NCBI GenBank assembly: GCA_017853435.1
Contig: JAFMJN010000001.1
Span: forward strand, 2,603-66,602
Origin: Planctomycetota bacterium
GTDB taxonomy: Bacteria; Planctomycetota; GCA-002687715; CAIWVZ01
Direction: 5' to 3'
Length of the DNA: 64,000 nucleotides
The notes under the pieces were generated by a model. The model searched no databases, had not been told where the DNA came from, and saw only the letters and a program-made list of their open reading frames with translations. The position numbers were made by a program, and so were the translations under genes. Shown here in pieces: positions 1 through 62,500 of this stretch. Positions within the stretch are counted from its first letter, which is position 1. Each line of letters opens with the position of its first letter.

Positions 1-322
1 TCCGCACATCCCCGCATCGCGGCCCGCGGCCGCGGCGTTGTCGACTCCCGTCGACGCGCTCCTCGCCCGCGTTCCCCCGGACGGCGTCGTCCGCATCGCG
101 CCCATGTCGACGAAAGGCGAAGCCCGCGAAATGGCGGCGCGCGCCGCGCGGCTTCTGCGCCCGAGGCGCGTCGTATGGATCGACCCCGACGGTCCCATCG
201 ACGTGCTCGCGACGCCCGGCTGGACGCTGGCCTTCGGTCCGACGCCGGATCCGATGCCCGCGGGAACCGTACTCCTCGCCTCGGCGCCGGGCGTCTTCGC
301 CGTGGAGGTCCTTCCGCGATGA
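1..322 (+). CDS. 3' part of a hypothetical protein CDS. The frame is open from the window edge and the gene starts upstream of the window.
   Basis: The frame at positions 2,5,8... has no stop back to position 1. The stop TGA at 320-322 overlaps the ATG at 319-321 of the next gene (ATGA coupling). No recognisable domain. Confidence 0.35.
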   Translation, partial: PHIPASRPAAAALSTPVDALLARVPPDGVVRIAPMSTKGEAREMAARAARLLRPRRVVWIDPDGPIDVLATPGWTLAFGPTPDPMPAGTVLLASAPGVFAVEVLPR

Positions 323-36294: not shown

Positions 36295-36746
36295 TATTGC
36301 GGCCTTCCGGTGCGACCCCGGAGGATGGCCTGATTATCCGACGGCAGCGCGATCGGAAGGTAACCGAATTCGTAGGTGCGTTCGCCGCCCGGAGCGGGAA
36401 CGACGAGGGTGACGCGGGCCAACACTTCCCGACCGGCATCGTCGCCGGGAACCGACTCGAAGAGGTAACGGCACTTCCAGCGGTTCGACCCGCCGAGACC
36501 GAACTCCCCGTCCCCCCGGCTCTTGCCGCCCTTCGAGCCGCTCGCGACCCGCGCGGCGGCCTCGTTCGAAATACGCTCCACGGCCTCGGGCAAGAGCAAC
36601 GCGGCATCCATGCGTTCCGCCGCCTCCGCTTCGAGATCGAGGGCTCCGGAAAACAGGGCGATGACTCCCGACATCCCGATGACCAAAAGTCCCATGGCCA
36701 CGAGGATTTCGACGAGCGTGAATCCTTTTTCGCCGCGACGGGTCAT
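36294..36746 (-). CDS. Prepilin-type N-terminal cleavage/methylation-domain protein (minor pseudopilin).
   Basis: KGFTLVEILVAMGLLVIGMSGV class III signal motif at the N-terminus. ATG at 36746. 4-nt overlap with the upstream gene. Confidence 0.7.
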   Translation of the reverse strand: MTRRGEKGFTLVEILVAMGLLVIGMSGVIALFSGALDLEAEAAERMDAALLLPEAVERISNEAAARVASGSKGGKSRGDGEFGLGGSNRWKCRYLFESVPGDDAGREVLARVTLVVPAPGGERTYEFGYLPIALPSDNQAILRGRTGRPQ

Positions 36747-37912: not shown

Positions 37913-40900
37913 CGACGTTCCTCCCGGGTCAACGTGCGCGTTTCGTCCATCCAGAGGACTTCGACTTTTTCCAGGATCGGCGACATCTTCCATTCGTGAC
38001 GCGCCAGATTGACCGGATCGAAACACCCGGATTCGAACGAGACTCCGAAGCGCACGTCGAAACCGTCGCCGTGGGCTCGGATGGCGTGCGGCTGTTTCCC
38101 GTCGGCCGCGGGATCGTCGAACCGCATCACGTACGGAGCGACCGCTCCCGGACCCGCCCACGGCGCATCACGGCGGAGACGCACCGTCGCCGTGAGACGC
38201 ACGCTGCGCGAGGGGCTTTGTTCCTCCCAGCGGAATCCGTCGAACCATGCGCCGTCGAGCGGCAACGAGAATCCGTACCACGCGAGTTCCGGACTATCGT
38301 TGTCCCGCGAACCGCGATCCCAATGGCGGAACGGCATTTCGAGGACGATGGCTTCCGCGTCGTGGGCACGGGTGACGGTGCCGAATCGACCGCGGAAGAG
38401 TCCGCCCGCACGCTCGCCCTTTTCGTCGAGGCGCGGCGGCATCGTCAGCGTGTTTTGGTTGCGAGCGGCCGAATAGTGGATGAGTTCTTCGTCCACGAGA
38501 ACGAGCCCGCCGTTCGCGACGAAATCGCCGGTGGAGGCGAGATTCAGGTCCGTGGCGTCCGCCGCGAGCGGCCCCTGAAGCATCGAGACGGGGACGAAGT
38601 CGAGGAAGACCGCGGAGGTTCCCCAACCGTGCTTCTGCGGAGTCGTATTCATGAAGCCGCGGATGCAGCGCAGGAGCGCCGGTCCGCCGCCCTTCCCCGT
38701 CCCGATCTGGCGATACGCGATGATCTCGTCGCCGACCTGGACGAGACCCGCGTCGTTTTCGGGGAGAACCGACTGCAGGGGTTCGTCGGCGAGAACCTTG
38801 GTGCCGTCCGGGAGCGTCGCATAAAGTGGCGGCTGTTGCGCGAAGCCTTCGCGCAGGACCCACACCGTGCGACACAAGGGAATCTCGTCGGTCGACTCGT
38901 CGATTCCCTGAACTTGCGTGACGGACGCGCCTCCCGACGTGTTGCTCGTCGACGACGCGTTGAGTCCCATCGTCGCGTGATCCCAAACGATGAAACGCTC
39001 GTCGGTGGTCGGAGCGATACGGACTTCGTCGAGGCGCCCCGACAGCGGCGACAACGCCCCCGACGTGCCCTGTCCCCCCGCCGCCGCCAACGCACCGTTT
39101 CCGCGGATACGCGGAAGTTCGCCGGAGGGGAACTTGAGGAGACGCGTGTAGGTCTCGCGCGACGGGTCCTCGACGGGAACTTGTCGCACGGTGAATTCCT
39201 GACCGCCGGTCGCGAAAGCCGCGAGCCCGATCGAGGGATTACCGTTGACCGCTTCGGGGATATTCGCCGACCACGCGACGTCGAAACGACGACGAATGCC
39301 GCCCCCCGATGATTCGACGGTGACGGAGTCCCCCCAACCGGGTCCGGGCATCGACGGCACCGGAACCGAAGTCGGCTGCCCCGGCTGCGGATTCGTGACG
39401 GGAATCGTCCCGATACCGGGGAACATCGGGACGCGGAACACCGGGGCGACTTCCTCGTTGGATCCGTGGATCGCGGCACCTGCCGCAAGCAGGTTGTCGT
39501 AGCCGAAGATCGTGGTTCCACCCTGCGAGCGGGACCGCAACGCTTGATTCACGAGCAACGGGGCCGCGGGCGTCGGATTCGTGATCGACTCGAGAAGCCG
39601 CTGCACGGCGTTGTCGAGGCGCGGGCCGTCGGCGTTCACGAGAAGGTTGCGCCCCGTGTCGCGGTAGGTGTACCGGATCCACTCGACCTTGTGCTGCTGA
39701 ATGTCGGAGAAGTTCGGGACCCCGACGGAAACGAACTCGGGGTTGATCCCGTTTTGTCCTTGGCGCGGCTCGAAGTAGCTCGAGACGTTCGTGACTCCGA
39801 TCGAAAGCGGAATGACCCGGCACAGGGTCGGAACGTTCGCCGCCGAGCCTTGACCGGCACGCTTCACCCAGTGCTTTTGACGCGTTTGGGAAATGACCAA
39901 GTTGCCGCCGACCTGCCCCGTGATGGGGTTGTCGGTCGGCGAGGAAAGTCCGAGAAGGGTCGTCCCCGCACGCGACTGGTAGGTCGCGAGTTCGATGACG
40001 GTCGGGGCAAGGCCGCCGAGATTCACGCCGCCGGGCAGCGTCTGACCGGTGATGCTCGAGACGATGAGGACGTAGCCGCCGGTCGGCTGGAAACACGAGA
40101 AATCCGGTACGGATCCCGTCGCGAGCACGAGATCCAGCCGATCGCCGTTCGGCTTCGCGGGGTCGAGGATCTCCATCGTGATCGGAGGAGGTCCGCCCGC
40201 CGGAGCCCCGGGGCCGCCGCCGACGGTCAACGTTTCGACCGCGTTCGACGCGAACGACGCGAGATTGAAGGGGCCCAAATCGGAAGCGAGTTTCCCGCCG
40301 CCCTTCGCGATCGCGACGCCGCCGCGATCCTGCTGCGGGAGGAGCGGCAGCGAATAACCGAACAGTTCGACGCGCTCACCCGCGGCGTGGTCGATCGGGC
40401 TCGTCCCGCGACGCCCGCGGCCGTTGCCGCCTCCGTTCGGGTAGGTGATCACCGAGAACGACGTTCCCGTGCGCTCGAATTCGACGATCTCGCGACCGAC
40501 CCAAGCGGCACCGCGATCAGGCCATCCATCGGCGTCCTCCGTCGTGAACGTCGTATCCGCGCGCGCCATCGAACCGGCGAGACGCGTCGAGTACTTCGCC
40601 TTCCCGCGCTTCATGCCGTCCCACCAAATCGCCACATCGGAGGGTTTCGAGCCCTTGTAGGAAAGGCCCGCGTGGTACCACGTGTCCGACTTCCACACGC
40701 CACCTTCGGGGGTCCATGTGGTTTCGGCGACCTCTTCGATCGTCGCAGCGGGATTCGGCAGCGTGCGATCCGCCACGCGCGCCTTCACGCGACCGTCCGC
40801 GTCGCGCGACAAGGTGATGAACTGATTCGGATCGTCCGACGCCTGCAGGTGGAAGAACGTCGCCTGCGACGGCGCGCCGTCGAAGCGGAACCACCCGTCG

Positions 40901-47470: not shown

Positions 47471-48316
47471 TCAGCGCAGCGCGCCTTCGGGGTTGACGTC
47501 GAGGGCGCGGAGATCGAAGCGGGCTTCCACGCGACGCCGGTCGTTCGGATCGGCACCCTTCCGTTCCTTCACGGATCCGTCGGGCGGGAAATCCAAACTG
47601 GTGACCACGGCTTTTTCGACCGCGAGCCAACGGCCGGCGAGCGCTTCGCTGCCGGTGTTGTCCTGCGCGAGCGCGCGCACCACGATCGACACGGCGCGCG
47701 GGTGGCCGACGACGGACAGCGACACCTTCGTCCCGGCGACGAACGGGGTCTTCGCGCCCGGGCTCTTCTTTTCCGGCTTGTCGATTTCGATGCGTTCGAC
47801 GCGAGCGATCCCGCCCTCCACTTCGCGTTCCGCCGCGAGAGCGATCACGAGGACCTGTTCGACGACGTCGAGTCCGCGCATCCAATGTTCTTGATCGGAT
47901 CGCTGGGACGGGAAGGCGTCGGGCAGGCCGAGTCGTTGGTCGACGTCGATATTGCGGACGGCACAGGCTTCGAGCGTCCCGTTTCGGAAGCGTTCGAGTT
48001 GCGCGTTGTAGTAAAGATCGGAATCGGCGACGTCGGATGCGATGCGCCATTCCTTCGCCGGAACGCGGGCGACGTTCGTACGCAGACCGTCGTAGCCCGC
48101 TTCAAGCGTGCCGCGGTTCTCGACCGCCTTGCGGAGGTCGAATCCGGCGGGCAGCGCCTGCTTCTGGTCCGCCTTCGCACGACCGATCTTCGCGCGCGCG
48201 GCTTGAATACGGCCGTCGAACGCTCCGTCGATCAAGAGGACGCCGACGAGCAACAAGAGCCCCCCCGCGACGACCGACATGATGAACTTGCGGTGTTCCT
48301 GCCAAATGTCGCCCAT
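47471..48316 (-). CDS. Bitopic inner-membrane protein, GspM/PilO-like assembly component (tentative).
   Basis: Single N-terminal TM (IMSVVAGGLLLLVGVLLI) followed by a helical then alpha/beta periplasmic domain. Sits immediately downstream of the GspL-like gene. Confidence 0.4.
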   Translation of the reverse strand: MGDIWQEHRKFIMSVVAGGLLLLVGVLLIDGAFDGRIQAARAKIGRAKADQKQALPAGFDLRKAVENRGTLEAGYDGLRTNVARVPAKEWRIASDVADSDLYYNAQLERFRNGTLEACAVRNIDVDQRLGLPDAFPSQRSDQEHWMRGLDVVEQVLVIALAAEREVEGGIARVERIEIDKPEKKSPGAKTPFVAGTKVSLSVVGHPRAVSIVVRALAQDNTGSEALAGRWLAVEKAVVTSLDFPPDGSVKERKGADPNDRRRVEARFDLRALDVNPEGALR

Positions 48317-48319
48317 GGC

Positions 48320-49990
48320 TCACGTCCCTCCGGTCAAGTCGACGCGCACCGTGTAGGAAAGCACGCCGCCGCCTCGAGCCGCGCCGCCTTTTTGGTCGGC
48401 GATCGACACGTCCGAGCCCGGAAGCGCTTTTTGAAGGCCGAGGACGAAATCCTGCAGAGCCTTCTCGGGCTGCCCCGCCTGCGACGTCGCCTGCCCCGCG
48501 ACGTAGGCGACGGTGCGCAGCACACGCGGCGACTTCGGGTCCTTCGGGTCGGTGGGGCGCGCCTCGCGCTGAACCGTGACCGAGCCGACCCATGCGCCTT
48601 CCGGCAGCGCCTCTTGAACGACCTTTTGAATCCGTGCGAGTCCTTCGCCGGGTTCCGTCCATCCGGCGAGGGCGGCCATCCTTTGGTTGATGTCGCGGAT
48701 ACGTTCCTGTTCGGTATCCCACGTCTTGCGGTCGCGCTTCGCCTTATCGGCCGCGCGGACTTCCGCCGCGGCGTCCTTTTCGAGTCGTCCGGCTTCGGCC
48801 ATGCCGTCCCAAAGGCGGAACCCCAGGAATCCTGCGGCGGCGACGCCCGAGAGGATCATCCACAAAGTTCGTTCACGGAAACTTCGTCGCGTCCGCGTCG
48901 CCGAAGTGACCACGTCGAGTTTGAACGCGGCCGGATCGCCCGACGTGATCATGAGCCCCAAAGCCACCGCGAACGCGCCCGGGTCTTCGAGGAACGTCTT
49001 CGCGTCCTCGGCGGGTAACGCGGAGGTGTCGAGCGCGTTTTCCGGTTGGAACCGAACGACGGGGCAGCGGAACGCGGCGGACAGGTAGTCGGAGAGACCT
49101 CGGAGGCGGGCACCTCCGCCCGAAAGCAGGATGCGCGAGGGTTCGAGGTCGCGAATCTTCGTCTGCGCCCGAATGAACGCGAGACTGGACTGAATCATGG
49201 CGGTTAGTTGGCCGACCGGGCCGACCAACGCGTTCGCCACTTTCTCTTCCTTGCCCGATGCGTACGCCGCGCGGCCCTTCGGGCTGACGTTGCCCGACTG
49301 GTGTTTCAGCGCCTCGGCATCCGCCGTTCCGAGTCCGAACCCGGACGCGACGGCCTCGGTCAATGCACGACCTCCGCCCGCCAAGTTGCGTGCGAACAGC
49401 AACTCGCCGTCCTTCACCAAAGCGATTTCGAGGTTGCGGTCTCCGATATCGACGAGAAGCGCGGCTTCGCCGTCACGCGGGTCACCCGTCGCGAGGAAGG
49501 CGTTCGCCAAGGCGACCGACGACGGAGTCCCGCAAGACGGGTCGCCGACCGTGGCGGCCGCGTCATGGCGGGCCGAGAGGAAGCCCTCCTTGCAGACGGC
49601 CACCATGACGTTTTCTTCTCCCGCCGACGCGTTCGGCAGTTGAAGGAGATTCCAGTCGCTCGCGAGCGCGTCTCCGACGGTCTGCGACATGTCGCGGACC
49701 TCGACGTCCATAAGGAATCGAAGGCGCCACAGCGGAACCTTCGGAACGGTCGTGTAACGGATGATCAGCGAAGGGCCGGAGATGCCGAAACGCACACCGG
49801 GCACGCGTCCCTTCGGGCCGAGCTCCGCCGCGAGTGTTCCGACCGCTGCGAGGGTCGCCGATTCCCCGTCCCCCGACGAATCGACCGAAGCCTGAAGCAC
49901 ACGCTGCAATTTCCAACGCGTCCCCGCACGCTCGGCGACGACCATTCGGACATGGTTGGATCCGAGATCGAGTCCTGCGAAAACCTTCAC
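48320..49990 (-). CDS. GspL-like protein (or PilM-PilN fusion). Cytoplasmic actin-like domain, TM segment and periplasmic domain.
   Basis: MKVFAGLDLGSNHVRMVVAE...LLVDIGDRNLEIALVKDGELLFARNL actin-like ATPase-fold motifs. TM segment TLWMILSGVAAAGFLGFRLW. Coiled-coil periplasmic tail. Confidence 0.6.
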   Translation of the reverse strand: MKVFAGLDLGSNHVRMVVAERAGTRWKLQRVLQASVDSSGDGESATLAAVGTLAAELGPKGRVPGVRFGISGPSLIIRYTTVPKVPLWRLRFLMDVEVRDMSQTVGDALASDWNLLQLPNASAGEENVMVAVCKEGFLSARHDAAATVGDPSCGTPSSVALANAFLATGDPRDGEAALLVDIGDRNLEIALVKDGELLFARNLAGGGRALTEAVASGFGLGTADAEALKHQSGNVSPKGRAAYASGKEEKVANALVGPVGQLTAMIQSSLAFIRAQTKIRDLEPSRILLSGGGARLRGLSDYLSAAFRCPVVRFQPENALDTSALPAEDAKTFLEDPGAFAVALGLMITSGDPAAFKLDVVTSATRTRRSFRERTLWMILSGVAAAGFLGFRLWDGMAEAGRLEKDAAAEVRAADKAKRDRKTWDTEQERIRDINQRMAALAGWTEPGEGLARIQKVVQEALPEGAWVGSVTVQREARPTDPKDPKSPRVLRTVAYVAGQATSQAGQPEKALQDFVLGLQKALPGSDVSIADQKGGAARGGGVLSYTVRVDLTGGT

Positions 49991-52446
49991 TTGTTCCCCT
50001 CCCCGGCGGAGCGCAAACGCGACAGCCGCGCTTCCGCGTCACGGGCGGATTCCGATCCCGGATGACGTCGGATGACCGATTCGAACAGCGCGGCCGCGAC
50101 GTCGCGACGCCCCCTCGGATCACCGGCGTAGTCGATCGCGCGCAGGAGCGAGGCCTGCGCCTCGGCCGTCGCCCGGGCTCCCGACGTGGTCACGCGATCC
50201 TTTTCGAGAGTCTGCGCGAGTTGTTCGAATGCGTCTCCGACGGGAGCGCCCTTCCATTTTCCCGCAGCGTCGCGCACCGACGCGATCAACGCGCCGTCGG
50301 TCACGATCGTACGGAAGAAACGCGCGTCGTCCGCCCTCGCCTCGAAATCGCGCTGAAGATTGCGCGCGACTTCGGCAAGTCGATCGACCGCCGTACGCGC
50401 TTCGGATTCGATGCGATCCTCGAACGGGAAGCGTGCGAGTACCTGTCCGAATGCGGACAGCGCTTCTCCGAAGCGTCCGGCGCGCTCCGCTTCGCGCGCT
50501 TTCGCGAGGAGCACCCCGGCCGCTGAAAGTTCGGCTTCGAACGAGGTATCGATCGCACAGCGGAAACTCGTGGCCGCGCCTCGTTTCATCACGAGGACGG
50601 CGACTCCGCGAGCGTCGATCAGCGAGACGGGGATCGACGCGGCGCTTCCATCCATCGCGACGAAGCGCAACCGGACGCGTGCGCCCGCGTCGCCGACGAT
50701 GACGGCCGACGCCGGCGACGCGGCGAACGGTCCCCGTCGACGGACTCCGGTCTCGCCTTCAACCGTCGTCACGGTGACTTCCGCCGGACTACCGGGGACG
50801 ACCGCGGCGAAGTCCGTCTCGCCGGAGGCGCCCGCGAGTTCCCAGCCGATGGTCGCCGGTTCTCCCGTCAATGTCGCCTTGAGTCCTCCAACTGCCGGCG
50901 TCGGGCCGCCGAATCCGGGCCCCGCCGGAGCTTTCGGATCACGGAACGACCACGCTCCGAAGTCGCGGAACACGACGCGACCGGGGCGTGTCGCACGCAC
51001 GGCCCCCGAAGATCCCATCGCGACGGCGAGATTCCCCGCCTTCGTCGCGGAGTCGGGCGGCGGATCGACCGCCTCCACGGACACATCGTCGAACGCGGCT
51101 TCCCCGCGGCCTGCGAGGATGAGTCCGACGCGCACCTTCGTGTATCCGCCCGGATCGGCGAAAACACCGGAAACCAATTTGAAATCGGTCGACTCTCCCG
51201 CAGGGAGTACGTCGCGGACCGCGACCGATTCGTCGGCGTTGAGCCAGTCGAGGCACAATCCCGCGTCCGCTCCCGAATCGGCGCGGACGCGCGCCGTCAC
51301 GCGAAAAGCGCGACCGGCGGCGACATCGACGGCACCCGACGCCCCTTCGAGCCGTACGATTCCGGGCGTCGGTCCGCGTTCGGCGCGCGCCAACGTCATC
51401 GCCACGCCCGAAGGTCCGTCCACCATGCCGACCGATGTGGGATCCGCCGGATCGAGCGGTTTCCATCCTTCCGCTTCGGCCGATTCGCCCTCATCGGCCA
51501 CGGGTTCGAACGACCACCATTTTTCGGGAACGAGGTTCGACGCGACGTGCCTCGACGCACCCGCGACGGAAACATTTCGCGCCTCGTTGCGCATCCATAG
51601 GTAGCCGACGCCCCCCAGAAGCCCGACGATGACGAGAAGCATCACGATGTTGAAAACGGTGTCGGAGCGCTTCGGCGGAACCTTCACTTCGAAGCTCGCG
51701 CCACCCATGTCGAACGCGGGCGCAATCACGGTTCGCGCCTCCGGTTCGTCGGGCGCCTCTTCAAGCGCTTCCGGAGGCGGAGCGAAGTCAGATGCGGCAC
51801 CGATGCCGAACGTCGCGGTGAATGATCCGAACGTCACGACCGATCCGGAAGCGAGTTCCGCTTCCTCGACCGGTTCTCCATCGACCTTCGTTCCATTGGA
51901 GGAACCGAGGTCCTTGACCATCCAACCCGATCCCTTTTTCCGCAATTCGGCATGATCGCCCGACACGGACGGGTCGGAAAGCACGAGCGCGTTGCGCGGC
52001 TTGCGCCCCACGGTGAACGACTCACCCGAAATCTTGACGACCTCGCCGCGTCGCGAACCCGTCCCGAGAACGAGGACGACGTCTTGTTCGAGCGAGATTT
52101 CGTCCTCGCCCCAACCGTCTTCAACCGCGGGTTCGGAAGCCTCGACGCCGGCGTCGAGAAACCGTATGGAAACGGATCCGACGGAGATCACGTCGCCGTC
52201 TTGAAGTTCGAACTTCGAAACCTTGCGACCATTCACCAAGGTCCCGTTGGAGGAACCGAGATCTTCCACGAACCAAGCGGAACCGTCCTTGAAGAATCGG
52301 CAATGCTGCCGAGACGCTTCGGGGACGTCGAGGACGACGTCGTTGGTCGACGATCGGCCGGCTTTGACCTCGCTTCCGAGGGCCAATTCCCGAAAACCGG
52401 CGGCGTCCGTGATGGCAAGTTTTGGCATGGTGCGGTGCGCGTCCAC
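49987..52446 (-). CDS. Membrane protein with two N-terminal FHA domains, one TM segment and a large periplasmic domain. First gene of the pseudopilin operon.
   Basis: Two FHA cores (GRSSTNDVVLDVPEASRQHCRFF...VEDLGSSNGTLVNGRKV and GRKPRNALVLSDPSVSGDHAELR...VKDLGSSNGTKVDG). TM segment TVFNIVMLLVIVGLLGGVGYLW. An alternative start is the ATG at 52428 (MPKLAIT). 4-nt overlap with the GspL-like gene. Confidence 0.65.
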   Translation of the reverse strand: MDAHRTMPKLAITDAAGFRELALGSEVKAGRSSTNDVVLDVPEASRQHCRFFKDGSAWFVEDLGSSNGTLVNGRKVSKFELQDGDVISVGSVSIRFLDAGVEASEPAVEDGWGEDEISLEQDVVLVLGTGSRRGEVVKISGESFTVGRKPRNALVLSDPSVSGDHAELRKKGSGWMVKDLGSSNGTKVDGEPVEEAELASGSVVTFGSFTATFGIGAASDFAPPPEALEEAPDEPEARTVIAPAFDMGGASFEVKVPPKRSDTVFNIVMLLVIVGLLGGVGYLWMRNEARNVSVAGASRHVASNLVPEKWWSFEPVADEGESAEAEGWKPLDPADPTSVGMVDGPSGVAMTLARAERGPTPGIVRLEGASGAVDVAAGRAFRVTARVRADSGADAGLCLDWLNADESVAVRDVLPAGESTDFKLVSGVFADPGGYTKVRVGLILAGRGEAAFDDVSVEAVDPPPDSATKAGNLAVAMGSSGAVRATRPGRVVFRDFGAWSFRDPKAPAGPGFGGPTPAVGGLKATLTGEPATIGWELAGASGETDFAAVVPGSPAEVTVTTVEGETGVRRRGPFAASPASAVIVGDAGARVRLRFVAMDGSAASIPVSLIDARGVAVLVMKRGAATSFRCAIDTSFEAELSAAGVLLAKAREAERAGRFGEALSAFGQVLARFPFEDRIESEARTAVDRLAEVARNLQRDFEARADDARFFRTIVTDGALIASVRDAAGKWKGAPVGDAFEQLAQTLEKDRVTTSGARATAEAQASLLRAIDYAGDPRGRRDVAAALFESVIRRHPGSESARDAEARLSRLRSAGEGNK

Positions 52447-52673
52447 CCGTCGCCCGAGATTCCCCCAACCACCGACGACGATGGAAGTTGCGAAACGATG
52501 GCGACGGTCTCGAAGAGTTCCCCGATCGAGGGCCCCGGATCCCGAGGCGACTCGACTCTAAACCGACGGACATTTCGAGACCACTTCGAAGGGGGATTCG
52601 TGCGATCCGCCCCAACCCGTGATTCGCGGCTCGATTCGCGCTACGATCTGCTCGCTGCGTCGGAAGACGCACG

Positions 52674-52746
52674 GGTCCCGTAGCTCAGTGGATAGAGCAT
52701 CGGTCTTCGGAACCGCAGGTCGCCCGTTCGAATCGGGCCGGGACCG
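52674..52746 (+). tRNA. tRNA-Arg (anticodon TCG).
   Basis: Cloverleaf by hand folding. Acceptor GGTCCCG/CGGGACC, D-arm GCTC-AGTGGATA-GAGC, anticodon arm TCGGT-CTTCGGA-ACCGC (one T.C mismatch at 27:43), T-arm GCCCG-TTCGAAT-CGGGC, discriminator G. No encoded CCA. Confidence 0.75.
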
Positions 52747-52969
52747 CTGAGATTTCGCGAGGTTTCGCCGTTCCCGCACCTCCCAGTGCCGGAGTGCCGC
52801 CATCGATCTGCGGCCCTACCGGGCCGAGGAACCGATGCCCTAACCCGGTTACCCGGCACCACCGATTGCCGCCACGCCCGTTATCCCAAGCCTTCAACAA
52901 CCGATCGCAGAGTGGATCTGCCGCAAGTAGAACCGACTAGACGCGAGTCCAGCGGTCATGGCTTGGATC

Positions 52970-53497
52970 TCAGGCGATGGTGCGGACGGTGACCCCGAAT
53001 CGCCGTTCGCTGCCCGCACGCGCTCCGTTTAAACCGACCCCGGACACGACGGTCATGGCCTCGAGTGATACGTGTCCATCGGAGTGCGGGCGCGGACACT
53101 CGGCCTGCCCTCCGCTACGGCCCCCTCTACACTCTCTGCAGCCGCACTCCCCCTTCCAGCGAAGGACCCGCACCCTCCACCGATAGAGGATGGCGTCGTG
53201 GCCACCGACACCCCGCACCGACGAGTGAAGGACGGCCACTGGAGCAACGTCCTCAGCAACCAAGATGGCGGGGGCAGGACATCTCGTATCAAAGAGAACT
53301 GCTTGGGTCACGAGACGGCGAGCAGCATGACATGTCGGACGAGTTTCCGCCGTCGACGCGAGCGACTCCATCGTTCGAGTGCCTTCCAAACTGCGATTCC
53401 GATTGCGGATGAGCGGACGCACCACACGGGGGGCAGGACACCTCGTCGCAAAGAGGACCGTTTGGGTCGGGAGAAGGCGAGCGGCGTAGGGTCCCAT
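52970..53497 (-). pseudogene. Two tandem decayed copies of the Rhs N-terminal leader module (orphan Rhs 5' remnants). Probably non-functional.
   Basis: Translation contains ...ETRPTCHAARRLVTQAVLFDTRCPAPAILVAEDVAPVAVL... and ...TQTVLFATRCPAPRVV... These are homologous to the Rhs1 leader SLASTVENRPTCHAARRRVTQTVLFETRCPAPAILVAEDHAPLAVL (58500-58693). At nucleotide level 'ggcgggggcaggacacctcgtctcaaagagaacggtttgggtcac' recurs at about 53260, 53410 and 58540. Confidence 0.5.
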
Positions 53498-53502
53498 GCG
53501 CG

Positions 53503-53973
53503 CTACTGCGGTGGTGGCTGAGATCCCCGAGCCAATGGTCGAAACTGCTCACCGTTCCCAATTTGAAATCGATAGCCGACGCACACACCATCCGAAATGT
53601 GCAGACGAAAATACGAGGGGAGTAGATCGCTAGTAGGTCCTGACTTGGACGGAATGAGAACCCCGCCCATACGGTACTCAAGAATCGTAATCGGTGGTGC
53701 GGCTGACTCCCGATCAGGGGGGCCAAGGTTGTCATTGATCCACGCAGCGGTCCTTTGCAATACCCCTTCTCGTTCAACCAAGTCACCAACCATATAGGGA
53801 CGGCGATTAACGGGGCTCAGCTCATCACTGCCGCGCATCCTCCAAATATCTGGGGCAAATGGAATGAGTCGCGCAAAATCGTAGTGAGCATCATCCGCTA
53901 CCGCGAACGCGCCTAACCCCCAACCTAAGAGACCGGCAAATGCAACGGCAACAGACCATTTGACTTGAATCAT
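53503..53973 (-). CDS. Secreted hypothetical protein in the Rhs island (accessory or immunity candidate).
   Basis: The ATG at 53973 overlaps the stop of the upstream gene (ATGA). Signal peptide MIQVKWSVAVAFAGLLGWGLGAFAVA. AT-rich relative to the flanks. Confidence 0.4.
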   Translation of the reverse strand: MIQVKWSVAVAFAGLLGWGLGAFAVADDAHYDFARLIPFAPDIWRMRGSDELSPVNRRPYMVGDLVEREGVLQRTAAWINDNLGPPDRESAAPPITILEYRMGGVLIPSKSGPTSDLLPSYFRLHISDGVCVGYRFQIGNGEQFRPLARGSQPPPQ

Positions 53974-54614
53974 CGTTGGGCTTCGCTTAGCATTGCACTA
54001 GCGCCCTCGAAGAGTCCTAACTCACTACAAATGCCGTGTGTGAATTTCAGTCGCATGACAATGCGCCTTGGTTCAGGCGATGGCCAGCCACGCCCCGCGG
54101 TCGATCCCATATCGAACTCTGCGGACAGATCGCCGTGTCGACGATCAGGCGCTCCTACCCGCTCAAACACGTCTGTGGTCGACTGACCCAGAATCGATCC
54201 GTCTCGCGCCAATGCACCAACCATCGTTGCGCGAACCTGCCGCGGGTACCCGACGGTGTCGTGAGCGCTTTTCCAGACGGAGGGATCAAACGCGGACGAG
54301 TCCCAGTACTTGACTTGCTTCAAGTGCATCGACTCGGATCGCGATCCAATGAACACCAAGTACCCTAGGAATCCGACGACCCAGAGCAGTCCTCGCCATG
54401 AACGAATGAAATTGCCCGCGCGCCGTGGGTGGTGAATCAAGACCAACAATCCATACACCATAAAACCAAAGCACATGAAGCACACCAGCCCCAGTAATCC
54501 AGTTGGACTGGAATCAAAGCCTATCAGCCCGGACAAAAGCGCAAGCGGGAGCAAGAAAACCTGAACGCCACCTGCCAACAACATTCCAGTGAACCACTCA
54601 AACGAAGTCAACAT
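53970..54614 (-). CDS. Polytopic membrane protein, candidate immunity protein for the Rhs1 C-terminal toxin.
   Basis: ATG at 54614. At least four hydrophobic helices (GMLLAGGVQVFLLPLALLSGLIGF, LLGLVCFMCFGFMVYGLLVLI, LLWVVGFLGYLVFIG). Lies downstream of the Rhs1 stop in a low-GC patch. Confidence 0.4.
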   Translation of the reverse strand: MLTSFEWFTGMLLAGGVQVFLLPLALLSGLIGFDSSPTGLLGLVCFMCFGFMVYGLLVLIHHPRRAGNFIRSWRGLLWVVGFLGYLVFIGSRSESMHLKQVKYWDSSAFDPSVWKSAHDTVGYPRQVRATMVGALARDGSILGQSTTDVFERVGAPDRRHGDLSAEFDMGSTAGRGWPSPEPRRIVMRLKFTHGICSELGLFEGASAMLSEAQR

Positions 54615-54823: not shown

Positions 54824-57800
54824 TCACCTCGGCCTCCTCCTAGTCATCTTGCCGAATGCATATCCGTATGCCCACAGGTCCAGATCGGCGCCAACAGGGA
54901 TATCCCCCGTCGGATCGCCATCCAACTCAACACCGCCGTTGAGCGGATTGCAGCCTTTGGGTCCATGCCAAATCACGGGCCCATGCGGCATCGTCTTGCC
55001 TCCCCCAGATGGCGGAGGTGTGGTTCCACGGTGCACGGGAATCCGCCGCAATGGGTACGCGAACCGAAGCATTAGTAGCCCTCGGTCGAGTTTGTCCTTG
55101 CAGCAAGTCCAGCAATCGTCAGGCGTCTTCTTGGGAAATGCACACAGAAATCCAGCCTCGTTATTAAGGACGTCCTTCCTACTCTCACCATTCCATTTCC
55201 CACCTGCCCAGTTTTCCGTGTCAAAGAGCTCATGCGAACCCATTCCAGCTCTGGCGGCCAGCCCGCCATACTGCCTCACTGCCATACACGCTCCCACACA
55301 GTGCACCATTGCGTTGAAGGCCTCATTCGGTGCGTCCGGTGGAAATCCATGCTCCCGGAGCACCCTTGACGCCGCAGCCATCAAGCTTTCAGACTGAGTT
55401 GGAGGCGGCTCAGACAGCCCCATAACGCGCCGAGCGGCTCCGGCTGAGTTCTCTCCCATGCCCTGCTCTCCAAGCGGATCCGTTGTGTCAAGTGGCATGG
55501 AATCCACATACCCATACCCATAGACCCCCGACGCATCGAGGATCGGGTCCCTCTCAAGGAACCCGCCCGTCTCCGGCCGGTACCACCTTGCACGGTAGTA
55601 GTAGAGCCCGATCTCCTGGTTCCACTCTCGTCCCGTGTACGTGAAGTCCTGCTCGCCCTGCGACATGTTCGGGCTGTAGTACGTCCCCGTTCCGTCGCAG
55701 AACTGCACCTGACCGTAGTCGGTGTACCGGTACGTCTCGAGCACACCCCCTTCGATCGTGATTGTGTTTGTCAGATTCGACACGACACACTGCACGGTCC
55801 CCAGGAAGTCGCCCTGGTAGTAGCCCTCGTAGTAGTAACTTGGGCCTGCGTTGAAGATGTCCGCCCGTGCCCAAAGGATCTGGTCCATCAGGTAGGGGCC
55901 GTACACCCTCACGAACTTCACGCGGGACTCGCTCAGGGGGCTCGACCCGGCTTGCACCACGAACTCTTCGATCGGTTGCTCACCGTCGTAGTACGTGTGC
56001 GTCCAGAACGAGCCGTTCGTGTCCTTGCGCTCGATGCGGCGGCCAAATGGGTCGTACCGGTAGCGCCAGACATGACCGCTGCCGTCGGTCGCTTCGTAGA
56101 TCCGGTTCTCCATGTCCACCTTGACCGTCGGGGACGTCTTCTGGTTCCCGTTCGTGTCAAACGTGTTGGTCTCTTGGGAGGTCTGCGTCAGCGTCGAGCC
56201 GTTCCAGTCGTACACCGTGCGGGTGCCCAACTGGTTTTGCGTGTCGAACACGTGGTCTTCTCGGCGGACGCCCGACTGCGACGGGGTGTCGTATTGGAGC
56301 GTCTTCCGGTTACCCACTTCGTCGAGCGTGAACTGACGCCGGTAGGCGAAGTCCGTTGTGGACTCGGTGGCCGACTCCACAGCCGAGTGGCTGGAGGTCG
56401 CGTACCCCACTCCGTAAAGCGTCTTCGTCAGGCGGTTGGCACCGTCGTAGTAGTACCGGTCGCCGTAGTCGAGGACTCCGCCCAGAGTGGCCCCTGTGGA
56501 GGCGTTGATGTAGTCCCGGCGTTCGAAGGTCACTCGGCCGCCCGCGTCGTACCCGCGCTTCAGGTCGACCGTCGTTGTCCGAGTCCCGTCCTTCAGCCTA
56601 TCCCATGTGAGCTGCGTCGCGCGGCCGTACGCGTCATACGCGAGCGTCTCGCGCGAGCGGTCGGATCCAAGCGTCAACTTCGTCATCCGGCGTGGGCCAG
56701 CGAAGTCCCAGTCGGCAGCGACGACGTAGGTCGGGCTTCCGGCCGTGATGTCGTCGGTTCGCTCCAGTTTGCTCACGCGGTTCAAGGAGTCGTACGTCCG
56801 CTTCACTCCGGTCAGGCCGTCGGGATACTTCACGAGGCTAAGGAGCCCGTCTCCCCCGTACGTGTACTCGACCTTCCGGTACGTGGTTCCAGACCCGCTG
56901 TCGTCCGTCGGCGTGATCCACGTCGTTTCGGATTCGAGTTTGCCTAGGGTGTTCCACGTTCGCGTCACGAGGGAATCCCGATTGTAGGCCGAGGTCAGGC
57001 GGCCGACGCCATCATACAGGAACTTCACCAGTGTGGGGCCTACCACATTCGTCGCTAGGGAATACGACTTCGTCAGCAGCAGATTTCGGCTGTCGTACGT
57101 GTACGTCGCCGAGGACCCGTTCCGGTCGGTCCTCGTCGAGACGTTATGGGCTTGGTCGTAGGTTAATGACACGGTGTCCGAGCCCGCCTCGTCGTAACTC
57201 AGGGTCAAGCGGTCAGCCTGGTCATACTCGTAGCGGCAGGACGTGTCGCCAGACCCTCGGACGTTCGTCCGGGTGACCAGGTTGTCGTTCAGGTCGTAGA
57301 CCATCACCGTATCGAGGTAAGTGGGGCTGCCGCCTCCGGTAAGGCGCCGCCTCACCTTCGTCACCCGGCCAAAATCGTCATAGAGGTTGGCAACGACGTT
57401 GCCGTTCGGGTCCGTTGCGGTCCGGACCCGGCCAAACCCGTCCACGTCGTAGGTCGTGGTCAAGGCCGTGGCGGAGCCACCCCCTCGCTCGCTGGTCGAG
57501 GTAAGGTGCCCGTCGGCATCGTAGGCGTGCTCCACGACGTAGGTCTTCGTGGTCCCGCCTTCCACCTCGTCGGCCGTGGTCTTTGTCACCCGTCCGGAAG
57601 GGTCCAACTGGCTCGTGACAGAGTTGCCGAGGGCGTCTGTCACCTTCGAGCGGCGGCCAGCCCCGTCGAAGGTGTAGGTCGTTGTGGAAGCCCCACCCCC
57701 GCACCCGCAGGAGTCGGTCGTCTGGGTCAGGCGGCCGCTCTTGTCGTAGGACATCGTGAAGGTCACGGTCCCGCTCTCGATGTCCGTCGAGAGATCGGCC

Positions 57801-58693
57801 TTCTTGGCCCATTGGGCGGTGGACGTCACGCGGTTGTCCCCGTCGTAGGACGCCCGGGACTCGATCAGTTTCGTGTTGCCGGAGTTGTACCGCTGACGCG
57901 TCACCGCGTTCGAGTTCTTATCGAACGTCGTCGTTGCGTAGTGGGATCCCGGATCCGTCATCTTCGTCGTCCGGTCGAACCCGTCGTACGCGAGCGTCGT
58001 CGCGTTCCCCTTACCGTCTTGCATCTTCGTCAGGCGGTGGTTCTGGTCGTACTCCCGGACCGACGAGGAGGCGTAGGCCGTCCCGCTCGCCACGGTCTTC
58101 GTCACTTCCAAGCCACGCATGTCGAACGTCGTGGTTTTCGAGTTGCCGCGGGGGAGCGTCACGGAGGTCACCCGGTCTTCCCTATCGCGGGCGAAGGCCC
58201 AGATGCGGTTGGACCCGTAACTCGAACCGTACTGCATCGTGATCGCCGACACCTCGTCAAGGAGGGTGTAGGACGTGAGGATGCGTTGCTCTGAGTTCGA
58301 GATGTCGGCGTTGCCGTGGTCGCGACGGGTCTCGGTCACCCGGTCGTTTAAGTCGTAGAAGTAGTCGGTCACCTTACCTGTCGGCGAGGTCACCGAGGTC
58401 GGGTAGCCAAGCGCGTTACGCGAGATCGTGGTGGTACCGCTCGTTGGGTCGGTGATGGAGGTGACGTTGTATGCGCTGCGAACGCGCGCTGACGAGGAGA
58501 GGACTGCCAATGGGGCATGGTCCTCAGCGACCAAGATGGCGGGGGCAGGACACCTCGTCTCAAAGAGAACGGTTTGGGTCACCCGACGACGAGCAGCATG
58601 ACATGTCGGACGATTCTCCACCGTCGATGCGAGCGAATTGAGTGAGCGAATGGCCTTCGAACCAAGATTTCGGGCGCGGACGAGCGATTGCAT
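54824..58693 (-). CDS. Rhs/YD-repeat protein (Rhs1, about 1289 aa) with a short unique N-terminal leader, a full RHS core and a variable C-terminal toxin domain.
   Basis: Many YD repeats (YEYDQADRLT, YTYDSRNLL, YRYDPFGRR). Core end YYYRARWYRPETGGFLERDPI...DPLGEQG (DPxG cleavage-type motif) followed by a 230-aa unique tail. The ATG at 58693 with a GAGG SD is preferred. The ORF-track N-terminus (to 58834) overlaps the upstream membrane-protein gene in another frame. Confidence 0.75.
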   Translation of the reverse strand: MQSLVRARNLGSKAIRSLNSLASTVENRPTCHAARRRVTQTVLFETRCPAPAILVAEDHAPLAVLSSSARVRSAYNVTSITDPTSGTTTISRNALGYPTSVTSPTGKVTDYFYDLNDRVTETRRDHGNADISNSEQRILTSYTLLDEVSAITMQYGSSYGSNRIWAFARDREDRVTSVTLPRGNSKTTTFDMRGLEVTKTVASGTAYASSSVREYDQNHRLTKMQDGKGNATTLAYDGFDRTTKMTDPGSHYATTTFDKNSNAVTRQRYNSGNTKLIESRASYDGDNRVTSTAQWAKKADLSTDIESGTVTFTMSYDKSGRLTQTTDSCGCGGGASTTTYTFDGAGRRSKVTDALGNSVTSQLDPSGRVTKTTADEVEGGTTKTYVVEHAYDADGHLTSTSERGGGSATALTTTYDVDGFGRVRTATDPNGNVVANLYDDFGRVTKVRRRLTGGGSPTYLDTVMVYDLNDNLVTRTNVRGSGDTSCRYEYDQADRLTLSYDEAGSDTVSLTYDQAHNVSTRTDRNGSSATYTYDSRNLLLTKSYSLATNVVGPTLVKFLYDGVGRLTSAYNRDSLVTRTWNTLGKLESETTWITPTDDSGSGTTYRKVEYTYGGDGLLSLVKYPDGLTGVKRTYDSLNRVSKLERTDDITAGSPTYVVAADWDFAGPRRMTKLTLGSDRSRETLAYDAYGRATQLTWDRLKDGTRTTTVDLKRGYDAGGRVTFERRDYINASTGATLGGVLDYGDRYYYDGANRLTKTLYGVGYATSSHSAVESATESTTDFAYRRQFTLDEVGNRKTLQYDTPSQSGVRREDHVFDTQNQLGTRTVYDWNGSTLTQTSQETNTFDTNGNQKTSPTVKVDMENRIYEATDGSGHVWRYRYDPFGRRIERKDTNGSFWTHTYYDGEQPIEEFVVQAGSSPLSESRVKFVRVYGPYLMDQILWARADIFNAGPSYYYEGYYQGDFLGTVQCVVSNLTNTITIEGGVLETYRYTDYGQVQFCDGTGTYYSPNMSQGEQDFTYTGREWNQEIGLYYYRARWYRPETGGFLERDPILDASGVYGYGYVDSMPLDTTDPLGEQGMGENSAGAARRVMGLSEPPPTQSESLMAAASRVLREHGFPPDAPNEAFNAMVHCVGACMAVRQYGGLAARAGMGSHELFDTENWAGGKWNGESRKDVLNNEAGFLCAFPKKTPDDCWTCCKDKLDRGLLMLRFAYPLRRIPVHRGTTPPPSGGGKTMPHGPVIWHGPKGCNPLNGGVELDGDPTGDIPVGADLDLWAYGYAFGKMTRRRPR
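55502..58469. repeat. Copy 1 (Rhs1 core) of a 2,968-bp near-identical direct repeat. Its partner is at 60331-63298, period 4,829 bp.
   Basis: Nucleotide identity starts at 'atccacatacccatac' (55502 / 60331) and ends at 'ggtgacgttg' (58469 / 63298). Only one mismatch was noticed (ttgggtcgg vs ttggatcgg near 58446 / 63275). The ORF track shows identical ORFs offset by 4829. Confidence 0.9.
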
Positions 58694-58706
58694 CGCACGG
58701 GCCTCA

Positions 58707-59477
58707 TCACACGGTATCAACGTCTTTGTAGATAAATAATGGAAGTCGAACAAAACCAATCCAAATAAACTTAAGCACGTCAACTCGAACTGCGGCTTCC
58801 CGGGATGTCGGGTCCCGAAAAAGAACCGCATCAAAAATAATTCCGCGCCCGAAGAACGCTCTTAACGCTGAGCACTGTGGATGATCTGCGCTCCTATGAG
58901 TTTGGCGTTTCCAACTGAGTGCCTCGCGAATTCTTCGGCGGAGTGAATCCGGAGGCATCGACTCTTGTGGCGTGCCTGTGAACGTTTGGCCAACAAGCGT
59001 AGCCACATCATCGAAATTAATGTCAACCAACACGCCGCGTTCCATGGTCCAACACTTCTCACTACCAACCGACGAGCTCGAATGCAACGGCGCGCCCGAC
59101 AACCGTCCAAGGCGAAATGTACTCCAAACAGAATAGCCCCAAGCGACCAGTAGAACCGTAACCAGTTCCAACGACGGATGCGCCCAAGTAAAGTGCCAAC
59201 CCCCGAATTGCAACACGGCCGCTCCAAAATCACGAGTCAAAGCACACGCAAACAGAAGGGACTTCGAATCGAACAAAATAATTCCACGCCGCAGACTAAG
59301 GCTGATCCCGCCGTGAAACAGGACTAAGAACAAAGGGACAGACATTGATCGAGCAGCAACTAAATCCAGTAGCACCGTGCAGCTCATGCACGCAGCAAAC
59401 CAAACCGCCATGAGCAGTATCGCAGATGCGACCCTTGGCGGTGTTGAAGGGTGTTTGTAGACAGAAATTTTACTCAT
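58707..59477 (-). CDS. Polytopic membrane protein with a C-terminal soluble domain, candidate immunity protein for the Rhs2 C-terminal toxin.
   Basis: ATG at 59477, 58 bp downstream of the Rhs2 stop. At least four N-terminal TM helices. AT-rich (about 50% GC) relative to the flanks. The stop lies 13 nt before the Rhs1 ATG. Confidence 0.45.
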   Translation of the reverse strand: MSKISVYKHPSTPPRVASAILLMAVWFAACMSCTVLLDLVAARSMSVPLFLVLFHGGISLSLRRGIILFDSKSLLFACALTRDFGAAVLQFGGWHFTWAHPSLELVTVLLVAWGYSVWSTFRLGRLSGAPLHSSSSVGSEKCWTMERGVLVDINFDDVATLVGQTFTGTPQESMPPDSLRRRIREALSWKRQTHRSADHPQCSALRAFFGRGIIFDAVLFRDPTSREAAVRVDVLKFIWIGFVRLPLFIYKDVDTV

Positions 59478-59535: not shown

Positions 59536-62500
59536 TCAATGCCCTAACTTCTTGGGCCTTGAATCTGCCGGGATAACCGGACGACTCCCCGGGGCTGGCT
59601 TTACGTCAACGGGACTGTGTTCGACTTCTGGAATTAGAGGCTTGCGCTTCCTGCAGCACTTTTCGGGGGCGTACCCATCTTTCGCCTTCTTCAGATTTTT
59701 TGCCGCCTCGGATTGTGCGGCTGCATACTTCTCCAGCGTTGCACGGGCATCGGAGCTCGACAGTACTTCGTAGTGGTCGTCGCTGCCCATGAATCTAGTC
59801 CAACCATCCACTACGCCAACCGAGCCACCGGCCACTTCCGCTGCTCCCAGTGCGACTCCACCAACACTGATTTCAACAGCGACTCCAACGCCTATTATCG
59901 TGCCCGCCCCACCCGTCGTGGCAGTACTACCTACTACGACCACAATGCTGACAGCCACAGAGCCCAGTGCTACTCCAGCACCTTTCACAAGGACACCAGC
60001 GCCCGCGGCCATCTCAGCCATCCCTAGAAGAATTTGCCGTTCGGTACCTTTAACAAATCGGCCCTCGTCAAGCAGCCGCTCAAGAGGTCCTGCCTTCTCG
60101 CGCCACTTGTCCCATGCGTCGTCAACGGCGTCAAGGCAACTTCTTTCGAATTCACTGCAGCATTCCGTGTCAAAACTCCCCCCATTCGCCTCACACACCT
60201 TCTTCGCATCGACACACGTTGGTCGACAAGCAAATGCCCTAAGTGAACTTCTCGACTCTTTGTTCTTCTGATAGGGAGTCGGTCTTAGTGCTTGAAATCC
60301 AGCAGGGTCGATCTGGTCTGTCGGCATCCCATCCACATACCCATACCCATAGACCCCCGACGCATCGAGGATCGGGTCCCTCTCAAGGAACCCGCCCGTC
60401 TCCGGCCGGTACCACCTTGCACGGTAGTAGTAGAGCCCGATCTCCTGGTTCCACTCTCGTCCCGTGTACGTGAAGTCCTGCTCGCCCTGCGACATGTTCG
60501 GGCTGTAGTACGTCCCCGTTCCGTCGCAGAACTGCACCTGACCGTAGTCGGTGTACCGGTACGTCTCGAGCACACCCCCTTCGATCGTGATTGTGTTTGT
60601 CAGATTCGACACGACACACTGCACGGTCCCCAGGAAGTCGCCCTGGTAGTAGCCCTCGTAGTAGTAACTTGGGCCTGCGTTGAAGATGTCCGCCCGTGCC
60701 CAAAGGATCTGGTCCATCAGGTAGGGGCCGTACACCCTCACGAACTTCACGCGGGACTCGCTCAGGGGGCTCGACCCGGCTTGCACCACGAACTCTTCGA
60801 TCGGTTGCTCACCGTCGTAGTACGTGTGCGTCCAGAACGAGCCGTTCGTGTCCTTGCGCTCGATGCGGCGGCCAAATGGGTCGTACCGGTAGCGCCAGAC
60901 ATGACCGCTGCCGTCGGTCGCTTCGTAGATCCGGTTCTCCATGTCCACCTTGACCGTCGGGGACGTCTTCTGGTTCCCGTTCGTGTCAAACGTGTTGGTC
61001 TCTTGGGAGGTCTGCGTCAGCGTCGAGCCGTTCCAGTCGTACACCGTGCGGGTGCCCAACTGGTTTTGCGTGTCGAACACGTGGTCTTCTCGGCGGACGC
61101 CCGACTGCGACGGGGTGTCGTATTGGAGCGTCTTCCGGTTACCCACTTCGTCGAGCGTGAACTGACGCCGGTAGGCGAAGTCCGTTGTGGACTCGGTGGC
61201 CGACTCCACAGCCGAGTGGCTGGAGGTCGCGTACCCCACTCCGTAAAGCGTCTTCGTCAGGCGGTTGGCACCGTCGTAGTAGTACCGGTCGCCGTAGTCG
61301 AGGACTCCGCCCAGAGTGGCCCCTGTGGAGGCGTTGATGTAGTCCCGGCGTTCGAAGGTCACTCGGCCGCCCGCGTCGTACCCGCGCTTCAGGTCGACCG
61401 TCGTTGTCCGAGTCCCGTCCTTCAGCCTATCCCATGTGAGCTGCGTCGCGCGGCCGTACGCGTCATACGCGAGCGTCTCGCGCGAGCGGTCGGATCCAAG
61501 CGTCAACTTCGTCATCCGGCGTGGGCCAGCGAAGTCCCAGTCGGCAGCGACGACGTAGGTCGGGCTTCCGGCCGTGATGTCGTCGGTTCGCTCCAGTTTG
61601 CTCACGCGGTTCAAGGAGTCGTACGTCCGCTTCACTCCGGTCAGGCCGTCGGGATACTTCACGAGGCTAAGGAGCCCGTCTCCCCCGTACGTGTACTCGA
61701 CCTTCCGGTACGTGGTTCCAGACCCGCTGTCGTCCGTCGGCGTGATCCACGTCGTTTCGGATTCGAGTTTGCCTAGGGTGTTCCACGTTCGCGTCACGAG
61801 GGAATCCCGATTGTAGGCCGAGGTCAGGCGGCCGACGCCATCATACAGGAACTTCACCAGTGTGGGGCCTACCACATTCGTCGCTAGGGAATACGACTTC
61901 GTCAGCAGCAGATTTCGGCTGTCGTACGTGTACGTCGCCGAGGACCCGTTCCGGTCGGTCCTCGTCGAGACGTTATGGGCTTGGTCGTAGGTTAATGACA
62001 CGGTGTCCGAGCCCGCCTCGTCGTAACTCAGGGTCAAGCGGTCAGCCTGGTCATACTCGTAGCGGCAGGACGTGTCGCCAGACCCTCGGACGTTCGTCCG
62101 GGTGACCAGGTTGTCGTTCAGGTCGTAGACCATCACCGTATCGAGGTAAGTGGGGCTGCCGCCTCCGGTAAGGCGCCGCCTCACCTTCGTCACCCGGCCA
62201 AAATCGTCATAGAGGTTGGCAACGACGTTGCCGTTCGGGTCCGTTGCGGTCCGGACCCGGCCAAACCCGTCCACGTCGTAGGTCGTGGTCAAGGCCGTGG
62301 CGGAGCCACCCCCTCGCTCGCTGGTCGAGGTAAGGTGCCCGTCGGCATCGTAGGCGTGCTCCACGACGTAGGTCTTCGTGGTCCCGCCTTCCACCTCGTC
62401 GGCCGTGGTCTTTGTCACCCGTCCGGAAGGGTCCAACTGGCTCGTGACAGAGTTGCCGAGGGCGTCTGTCACCTTCGAGCGGCGGCCAGCCCCGTCGAAG

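Follow-up and report, generated by a model that had tools for sequence, protein, structure and literature searches.

The 64-kb window analysed here (64,000 nucleotides of contig JAFMJN010000001.1, assembly GCA_017853435.1, from a Planctomycetota bacterium) contains a gene for a protein with two FHA domains, one transmembrane (TM) helix and a large periplasmic module, which we call the FHA protein. Its open reading frame (ORF) was confirmed at 49987-52446 on the minus strand, and the gene is the first of ten tightly spaced or overlapping minus-strand genes running from 52428 to 34849 (Table 1). The operon codes for a Planctomycetota-specific type IV filament machine resembling type II secretion systems and type IV pili (T2SS/T4P), with GspG/H/K/J/I-like pseudopilins. 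The FHA protein is probably a bitopic inner-membrane accessory subunit of this machine, which would tie Ser/Thr-phosphorylation signalling to pseudopilus assembly and possibly bind glycan. All six closest homologues begin with MPKL; therefore, we place the start at the internal ATG, and the product has 813 rather than 819 residues. The window protein is 100% identical to a protein from a Planctomycetota metagenome-assembled genome (MAG).

A tRNA-Arg gene lies on the opposite strand about 245 nt upstream, so in this genome the FHA gene opens its transcription unit, as a preliminary description of this DNA had proposed. That description also reported a 4-nt overlap with a GspL-like gene. The overlap is present, since the stop codon and the next GTG start share GTGA (...AAC AAG TGA / GTG AAG GTT...), with GGAGG just 5′ of it. 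The neighbour, however, is PilM-like by sequence and GspL-like in layout only. Its product matches PF11104 (PilM_2) and the PilM chain of PDB entry 3jc8 (4.9e-15), and no GspL family match was obtained for it. The NCBIfam model Amuc_1101 aligns with it over positions 7-489 of 608 (E 7.6e-36), with 124.1 bits against an equivalog cut-off of 650, so that by sequence the PilM-like protein is only a distant relative of the Amuc_1101 family.

The two tandem FHA domains of the earlier account were recovered with Pfam PF00498 as two stretches (E 1.5e-41; score 141.1 bits, cut-off 20.7). The top-scoring stretch covers residues 28-90 and the second domain residues ~129-212 in the 819-residue numbering, and the same model matches 55 of 62 sampled relatives. 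The residues of the phosphothreonine (pThr) site are present in both domains (R25, S39, H42 and N61 in the first; R142, S156, H159 and N178 in the second), with at least 80% conservation among 34 two-FHA relatives. The nearest PDB sequence matches of this region are the classical pThr binders GarA, OdhI, Rv1747 and FhaB (Rv0019c-type). Judged by sequence, both domains are canonical phosphothreonine readers and would be expected to bind pThr. Between them runs a conserved acidic linker, which may be a docking or autoregulatory segment.

C-terminal to the FHA pair, the chain contains only one hydrophobic helix, FNIVMLLVIVGLLGGVGYLWM, which AlphaFold models as one long helix. It is preceded by KR and trailed by R; basic residues thus flank it on both sides, and charge does not set its orientation. 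The large N-terminal FHA region without a signal peptide indicates an N-in topology. About 530 residues follow the helix, in agreement with the single TM helix and large periplasmic domain described previously. Pfam gives nothing in this part except a sub-threshold TPR at the extreme end. In the AlphaFold model (pLDDT 73.5, medium confidence, built from six sequences), the TM helix is followed by an all-β region, which reaches to about residue 627; from residue 630 onwards the chain is all-α and forms a helical domain at the C-terminus. Two nearly invariant motifs, N-L-x5-W-S-F-E and FDDV, bracket the first periplasmic domain, and we take them to resemble the ends of CBM_4_9 domains. Pfam CBM_4_9 was detected in five of the 62 relatives, and xylanase Y is matched by the family profile in its carbohydrate-binding module (CBM) 22 region (E 0.0015). 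For the helical end, the matches are CpoB/YbgF (E 5.6e-6) and TPRs of BamD type. We read the periplasmic module as a jelly-roll of CBM type followed by a mutarotase-like supersandwich and a helical end resembling CpoB/BamD, and it may bind glycan.

To place the gene in its wider context, we compared 14 independent loci from Planctomycetota (L001/L012, L003, L004, L010, L011, L013-L019 and L022). The gene for the FHA protein stands directly before the same PilM-like gene in all 14, at 30-88% identity. The full order is kept in at least 12 of them: the two-FHA TM protein, the PilM-like protein, a protein of ~280 residues, a TPR protein of ~950 residues, a GspG-like pseudopilin, a further pseudopilin and a giant protein of ~1.7 thousand residues. 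Start and stop codons overlap in the window and in L003, L004, L015, L018 and L021. The operon linkage of the FHA gene is meaningful, and the coincidental linkage that the preliminary description had considered is not what was found, the order being conserved down to about 30% identity. The possibility that the FHA protein is an unrelated signalling or glycan-sensing protein merely adjoining the pseudopilin operon was weighed on the same data. In its favour, the FHA gene ranks among the least conserved in the cluster (30-40% identity in distant loci, compared with 41-56% for the PilM-like gene). However, the invariant position and the stop/start overlap persist across deep divergence, one- and zero-FHA variants included, and the upstream neighbours vary while the downstream partner never does. 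We therefore regard a mere bystander as very improbable.

The family is large, and its constant part is the membrane and periplasmic module. With the TM and periplasmic part as its only query, a profile search returned 923 representatives at E<=1e-3; of these, 279 reach <=1e-10 and 40 reach <=1e-30, and among the weaker matches are unrelated multi-CBM giants. A k-mer-indexed homologue search with the C-terminal part gave only six clusters and understated the family compared with the exhaustive profile search, by which it spans hundreds of 50%-identity clusters. We assembled 154 sequences, namely the best 150 profile matches and the first-search homologues outside them. Complete proteins with the full C-terminal module number 89 in this set, and they carry two FHA domains (58 proteins), one (26) or none (5), the FHA-less variants being 550-570 residues long. 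The zero-FHA protein P0128 (L021, with a 4-nt overlap) and the one-FHA protein P0073 (L020) occupy the same slot before the PilM-like gene. Thus, the TM and periplasmic module is the constant core, and the FHA domains are a modular cytoplasmic add-on. Every member with a source name comes from a Planctomycetota MAG and is annotated only as 'FHA domain-containing' or 'hypothetical'. The family is so far restricted to uncultured Planctomycetota, and all carriers found are MAGs.

The preliminary description likened this architecture to YscD/EscD, the inner-membrane ring proteins of the type III secretion system (T3SS). A protein of this SctD type (YscD/PrgH/EscD/MxiG; CdsD) would form a 24-mer inner-membrane ring via ring-building motifs, with the FHA fold as a phospho-independent docking face. 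The resemblance is superficial and lies in the topology: like SctD, the FHA protein is N-in and bitopic, its cytoplasmic N-terminal FHA fold being joined by one TM helix to a large periplasmic part, and it is encoded in a secretion operon. PF16697 (Yop-YscD_cpl) also matches the FHA protein at 5.6e-31, and the chlamydial CdsD FHA domain (PDB 3gqs) is among its PDB matches. The PF16697 match, however, spans the same residues as the FHA match. Periplasmic ring-building motifs of the α-β-β-α-β type, together with an FHA fold that conserves its pThr-binding residues poorly and can do without them, characterize the SctD family (PMC3635987). SctD has three such motifs and a degenerate pThr site, whereas the planctomycete protein combines a periplasmic part of CBM-like, supersandwich and helical domains with two FHA domains that keep R/S/H/N, in a T2SS/T4P-like context. 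Structure prediction yielded no ring-building motif, the periplasmic part being all-β to ~627 and all-α from 630, and the SctD identity was rejected on both counts. The gene tables of the window and the related loci hold only PilM-like, pseudopilin, TPR and secretin genes and no T3SS core genes (SctC/J/V/N and others). An SctD-type ring protein is thus a highly unlikely explanation.

The second likeness, to the FHA proteins of type VI secretion systems (T6SS), stands in logic only. As with Fha1/TagH, a canonical FHA protein is encoded inside a secretion-machine cluster, and the logic is likely the same, a pThr-dependent assembly switch. Membership is not supported, since TIGR03354 (TagH/Fha1) scores 69.3 bits against a cut-off of 120.25 and covers only the FHA part (residues 138-231). 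Fha1/TagH is soluble or peripheral in the cytoplasm, whereas the planctomycete protein is membrane-anchored, has a large periplasmic module and is encoded without T6SS genes. FHA control of secretion and filament machines has precedent in the Tad-like Kil system as well as in T6SS (PMC8460266). The Kil genes of Myxococcus xanthus likewise form a type IV filament-superfamily cluster rich in FHA proteins, for which a signalling-cascade trigger was proposed (PMC8460266). Kil is, however, a Tad/type IVc system with FHA domains fused to the ATPase KilF or on other proteins, and a TM-CBM-supersandwich-TPR homologue is not described there.

Regarding the machine itself, the type IV filament hallmarks of the operon are the N_methyl, GspG, GspK and PilV/GspI-like matches together with PilM_2; a secretin is found only in six related loci. 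A scan of the main window ORFs and of the 10-kb flanks of the related loci gave no gene for a GspE/PilB ATPase, a GspF/PilC platform protein or a prepilin peptidase; these three presumably have their genes elsewhere in the genome. T2SS and T4P machines are among the best-studied envelope nanomachines. To our knowledge, their catalogued inner-membrane parts (GspC/L/M, PilM/N/O/P) include no phosphothreonine reader. Literature searches found no description of an FHA component of T2SS or type IVa pili; this and the uninformative names of the family members agree with the view of the preliminary description that the protein is not a described T2SS/T4P component. In our reading, the family is probably a previously undescribed accessory subunit, which would make this type IV filament system an envelope machine under FHA control.

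Among known machine parts, the FHA protein can be compared with GspC, PilP, FimV, TsaP and ExeAB, which are likewise bitopic or lipid-anchored inner-membrane accessories bridging the platform, cell wall and secretin. Many gsp operons begin with GspC. The FHA protein might accordingly be a non-homologous replacement of GspC/PilP, a bitopic connector between platform and secretin whose periplasmic domains touch the secretin N-domains and/or substrates, with the FHA domains being secondary. Several observations fit such a connector: the gene comes first, directly before the platform genes; the topology is GspC-like, most clearly in the FHA-less variants; the operon contains no recognisable GspC or PilP gene; and a secretin is encoded in the same cluster in six loci. 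No sequence or fold similarity to any of the five factors was detected, nor a GspC-family or PDZ match, and none of them carries an FHA domain. We consider this replacement possible but not likely. FimV, TsaP and ExeAB are glycan-binding accessory factors of T4P and T2SS, and a comparable peptidoglycan- or glycan-binding anchor or assembly factor would place the secretin and platform in the cell wall. Two carbohydrate-binding-type folds and the CpoB/BamD-like TPR end in the periplasm suit such a role, whereas LysM, SPOR, OmpA-like and PG_binding domains are all absent from the matches and a CBM fold is no proof of ligand binding. An anchor of this kind is unlikely.

The coupling to a Ser/Thr kinase, raised in the preliminary description, is plausible on circumstantial grounds: the canonical FHA residues, a regulator in seven loci and a kinase in one. 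An FHA-GAF-σ54 activator is encoded directly upstream of the FHA gene in six of the related loci (L003, L013, L014, L015, L016 and L017); in L019 it lies upstream at a distance of 3.5 kb. In L004, a single metagenomic contig, the orthologous FHA gene has immediately upstream of it a gene for a Hanks-type Ser/Thr kinase (4-954, plus strand; motifs HRDVKPSN and DFG). A secretin-HAD-(AsnB)-TPR module (HAD hydrolase; asparagine synthase) precedes on the same strand in L003, L013, L015, L016 and L018, and L017 has a secretin nearby on the opposite strand. The upstream neighbourhood is otherwise varied, with RHS toxins and a tRNA in the window and L010, mobile elements in L001 and thioredoxin-like genes in L022. 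In L016, a -24/-12 candidate for a σ54 promoter, TGGTACGGTCCTTGCT, lies at -132 in the gap before the FHA gene.

Several points weigh against an accessory subunit that couples phosphorylation to assembly. The window lacks genes for a kinase, a phosphatase, the FHA-activator, a secretin, the GspE/PilB ATPase and the GspF/PilC platform, and a six-frame search with a Hanks catalytic-loop expression together with tblastn (the L004 kinase; the L013 activator, secretin and TPR protein) matched the FHA domains alone. Kinase adjacency occurs in only one of ~13 contexts, with none at the related locus L022. The -24/-12 σ54 candidates upstream in the activator loci are near chance, except that of L016 with one mismatch. 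FHA input is evidently dispensable to the machine, given the relatives that lack FHA domains. Lastly, the first structure model is of medium confidence only, a Pfam CBM match is absent for the window protein itself, and the CBM-like and supersandwich folds are common scaffolds that do not prove glycan binding.

We nevertheless favour the accessory subunit, for which the following mechanism can be proposed. The TM helix and periplasmic core would sit beside the PilM-like/PilO-like assembly platform, where possible ligands of the core are glycan, either peptidoglycan or substrate polysaccharide, and/or the TPR and secretin components. The two FHA domains would recruit, or be recruited by, a Thr-phosphorylated partner made by a Hanks-type kinase. 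Assembly or activity of the pseudopilus would then be gated post-translationally, as Fha1/PpkA gates T6SS, and the upstream FHA-GAF-σ54 activator of the seven relatives may respond to this signal transcriptionally. If assembly is gated in this way, a T6SS-style threonine-phosphorylation switch would extend to the type IV filament superfamily.

A glycan-related role is plausible because of the periplasmic folds, the distant Amuc_1101 kinship of the PilM-like partner and the lectin-like (Laminin_G_3) pseudopilins that occur in related loci; together, they point to glycan capture or secretion. Planctomycetota are known as polysaccharide degraders, which such a role would fit. Amuc_1101 (MUL2B) belongs to the pilus/secretin-type MUL2 locus of Akkermansia (Amuc_1098-1102), which is linked to glycan acquisition (PMC13174399). 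Both loci come from the same PVC superphylum, and the PilM-like protein downstream of the FHA gene aligns over nearly the whole Amuc_1101-family model. However, the four MUL2 genes list no FHA-TM protein, and the pseudopilin set with its giant GspK-like protein differs. A further-reaching idea, which we think rather unlikely, casts the single polypeptide as a transmembrane switch in a planctomycete nanomachine for glycan foraging or secretion. Polysaccharide or cell-wall glycan would be sensed by the CBM-like and mutarotase-like domains and this state relayed to the FHA pair, which would license pseudopilus assembly together with a Hanks kinase and the FHA-GAF-σ54 activator. If such a switch exists, a T2SS/T4P-type machine would be gated directly by Ser/Thr phosphorylation, a mode of control that has not been described in this superfamily except for the Tad-like Kil system. 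In planctomycetes, the machine might correspond to the MUL2 glycan-uptake pilus of Verrucomicrobiota.

Table 1. Coordinates of the features in the window (aa, amino acids; residue numbers refer to the 813-residue FHA protein).
Feature	Coordinates	Strand	Remarks
FHA-FHA-TM-periplasmic protein, 813 aa	49987..52428	-	likely start ATG 52428; annotated ORF reaches GTG at 52446
FHA domain 1, residues ~1-95	52144..52428	-	G24-R25, S39-R-x-H42 and N61-G-T kept in at least 80% of 34 two-FHA relatives
Acidic inter-FHA linker, residues ~96-117	52078-52143	-	WG(D/E)DE(I/L)SLE, conserved in the six closest homologues
FHA domain 2, residues ~118-210	51799..52077	-	G141-R142, S156, H159 and N178-G-T conserved
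Single TM helix, residues 259-279 of 813	51592..51654	-	sequence and AlphaFold2 (AF2) helix
Periplasmic domain 1, CBM4_9/CBM22-like β-jelly-roll, residues ~297-459	51052..51540	-	opens with N-L-x5-W-S-F-E, closes with FDDV
Periplasmic domain 2, galactose-mutarotase-like β-supersandwich, residues ~453-632	50533..51072	-	
Periplasmic C-terminal helical domain, residues ~630-808	50005..50541	-	terminal CpoB/YbgF/BamD-like TPR
PilM-like actin-fold protein with TM helix and periplasmic tail, 556 aa	48320..49990	-	GTG start overlaps FHA gene stop by 4 nt
281-aa bitopic protein in PilO/GspM position	47471..48316	-	conserved synteny
TPR protein, 948 aa	44618..47464	-	
GspG-like major pseudopilin, 208 aa	43990..44616	-	
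Pseudopilin, 339 aa	42960..43979	-	Laminin_G_3 on orthologues in other loci
Giant 1684-aa protein with GspK-like N-terminal hydrophobic segment	37909..42963	-	NF037980 E 0.0012, N-terminus only
Two prepilin-type minor pseudopilins	~36743-37915 and 36294-36746	-	second one PilV/GspI-like
Last tightly spaced gene, 481 aa	34849..36294	-	signal peptide; C-terminal zinc-ribbon-like CxxC..CxxC
tRNA-Arg(TCG)	52674..52747	+	~245 nt upstream of FHA gene, opposite strand; upstream operon boundary in this genome
'ORF' spanning the first 57-nt repeat copies	52970-53497		probably non-coding
57-nt repeat, three copies	53270-53326, 53429-53485, 58541-58597		at least 82% identity
251-nt repeat pair	53191-53441 / 58462-58712		75% identity
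Immunity-like small ORFs after the RHS genes	58707-59477, 53970-54614, 53503-53973		
RHS/YD-repeat polymorphic-toxin gene	54824-58834	-	
RHS/YD-repeat polymorphic-toxin gene	59536-63978	-	

The remaining operon products are less readily classified. Neither a family match nor a PDB sequence relative was found for the 281-residue protein. The giant protein gave no family match beyond its N-terminal NF037980 segment; it is 40-51% identical across the more distant related loci and may be an unusually large pseudopilus tip subunit. The secreted 481-residue protein gave weak matches only, including the N-terminal domain of Leptospira LA_0442 (E 7.7e-6). Downstream of the operon, ScpB, aldehyde dehydrogenase, NFACT, ATP synthase and aminoacyl-tRNA synthetases are encoded, all of them housekeeping functions.

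On the upstream side, a scan of 52300-53000 gave neither a σ70-type promoter nor a terminator, and no σ54 -24/-12 promoter upstream of the FHA gene was found in the window. The tRNA-Arg(TCG) gene stands between an RHS toxin island and the pseudopilin operon and is possibly an integration or rearrangement point; an integration or rearrangement there would account for the absence from this genome region of the secretin and activator module that is upstream elsewhere. The island consists of two RHS/YD-repeat polymorphic-toxin genes with a near-identical core and differing C-terminal tips, each followed by immunity-like small ORFs. The cores form a direct repeat with 4829-nt spacing and 99-100% identity, and the public contigs of the organism end at these RHS repeats. 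Two shorter repeats accompany them, a 57-nt element (GGGGGCAGGACACCTCGTCGCAAAGAGGACCG...) in three copies and a 251-nt pair, and the 'ORF' that spans the first copies of the 57-nt element is included in Table 1. At the equivalent place of locus L010, from a sister MAG, the RHS gene has a TNT (tuberculosis necrotizing toxin) tip.

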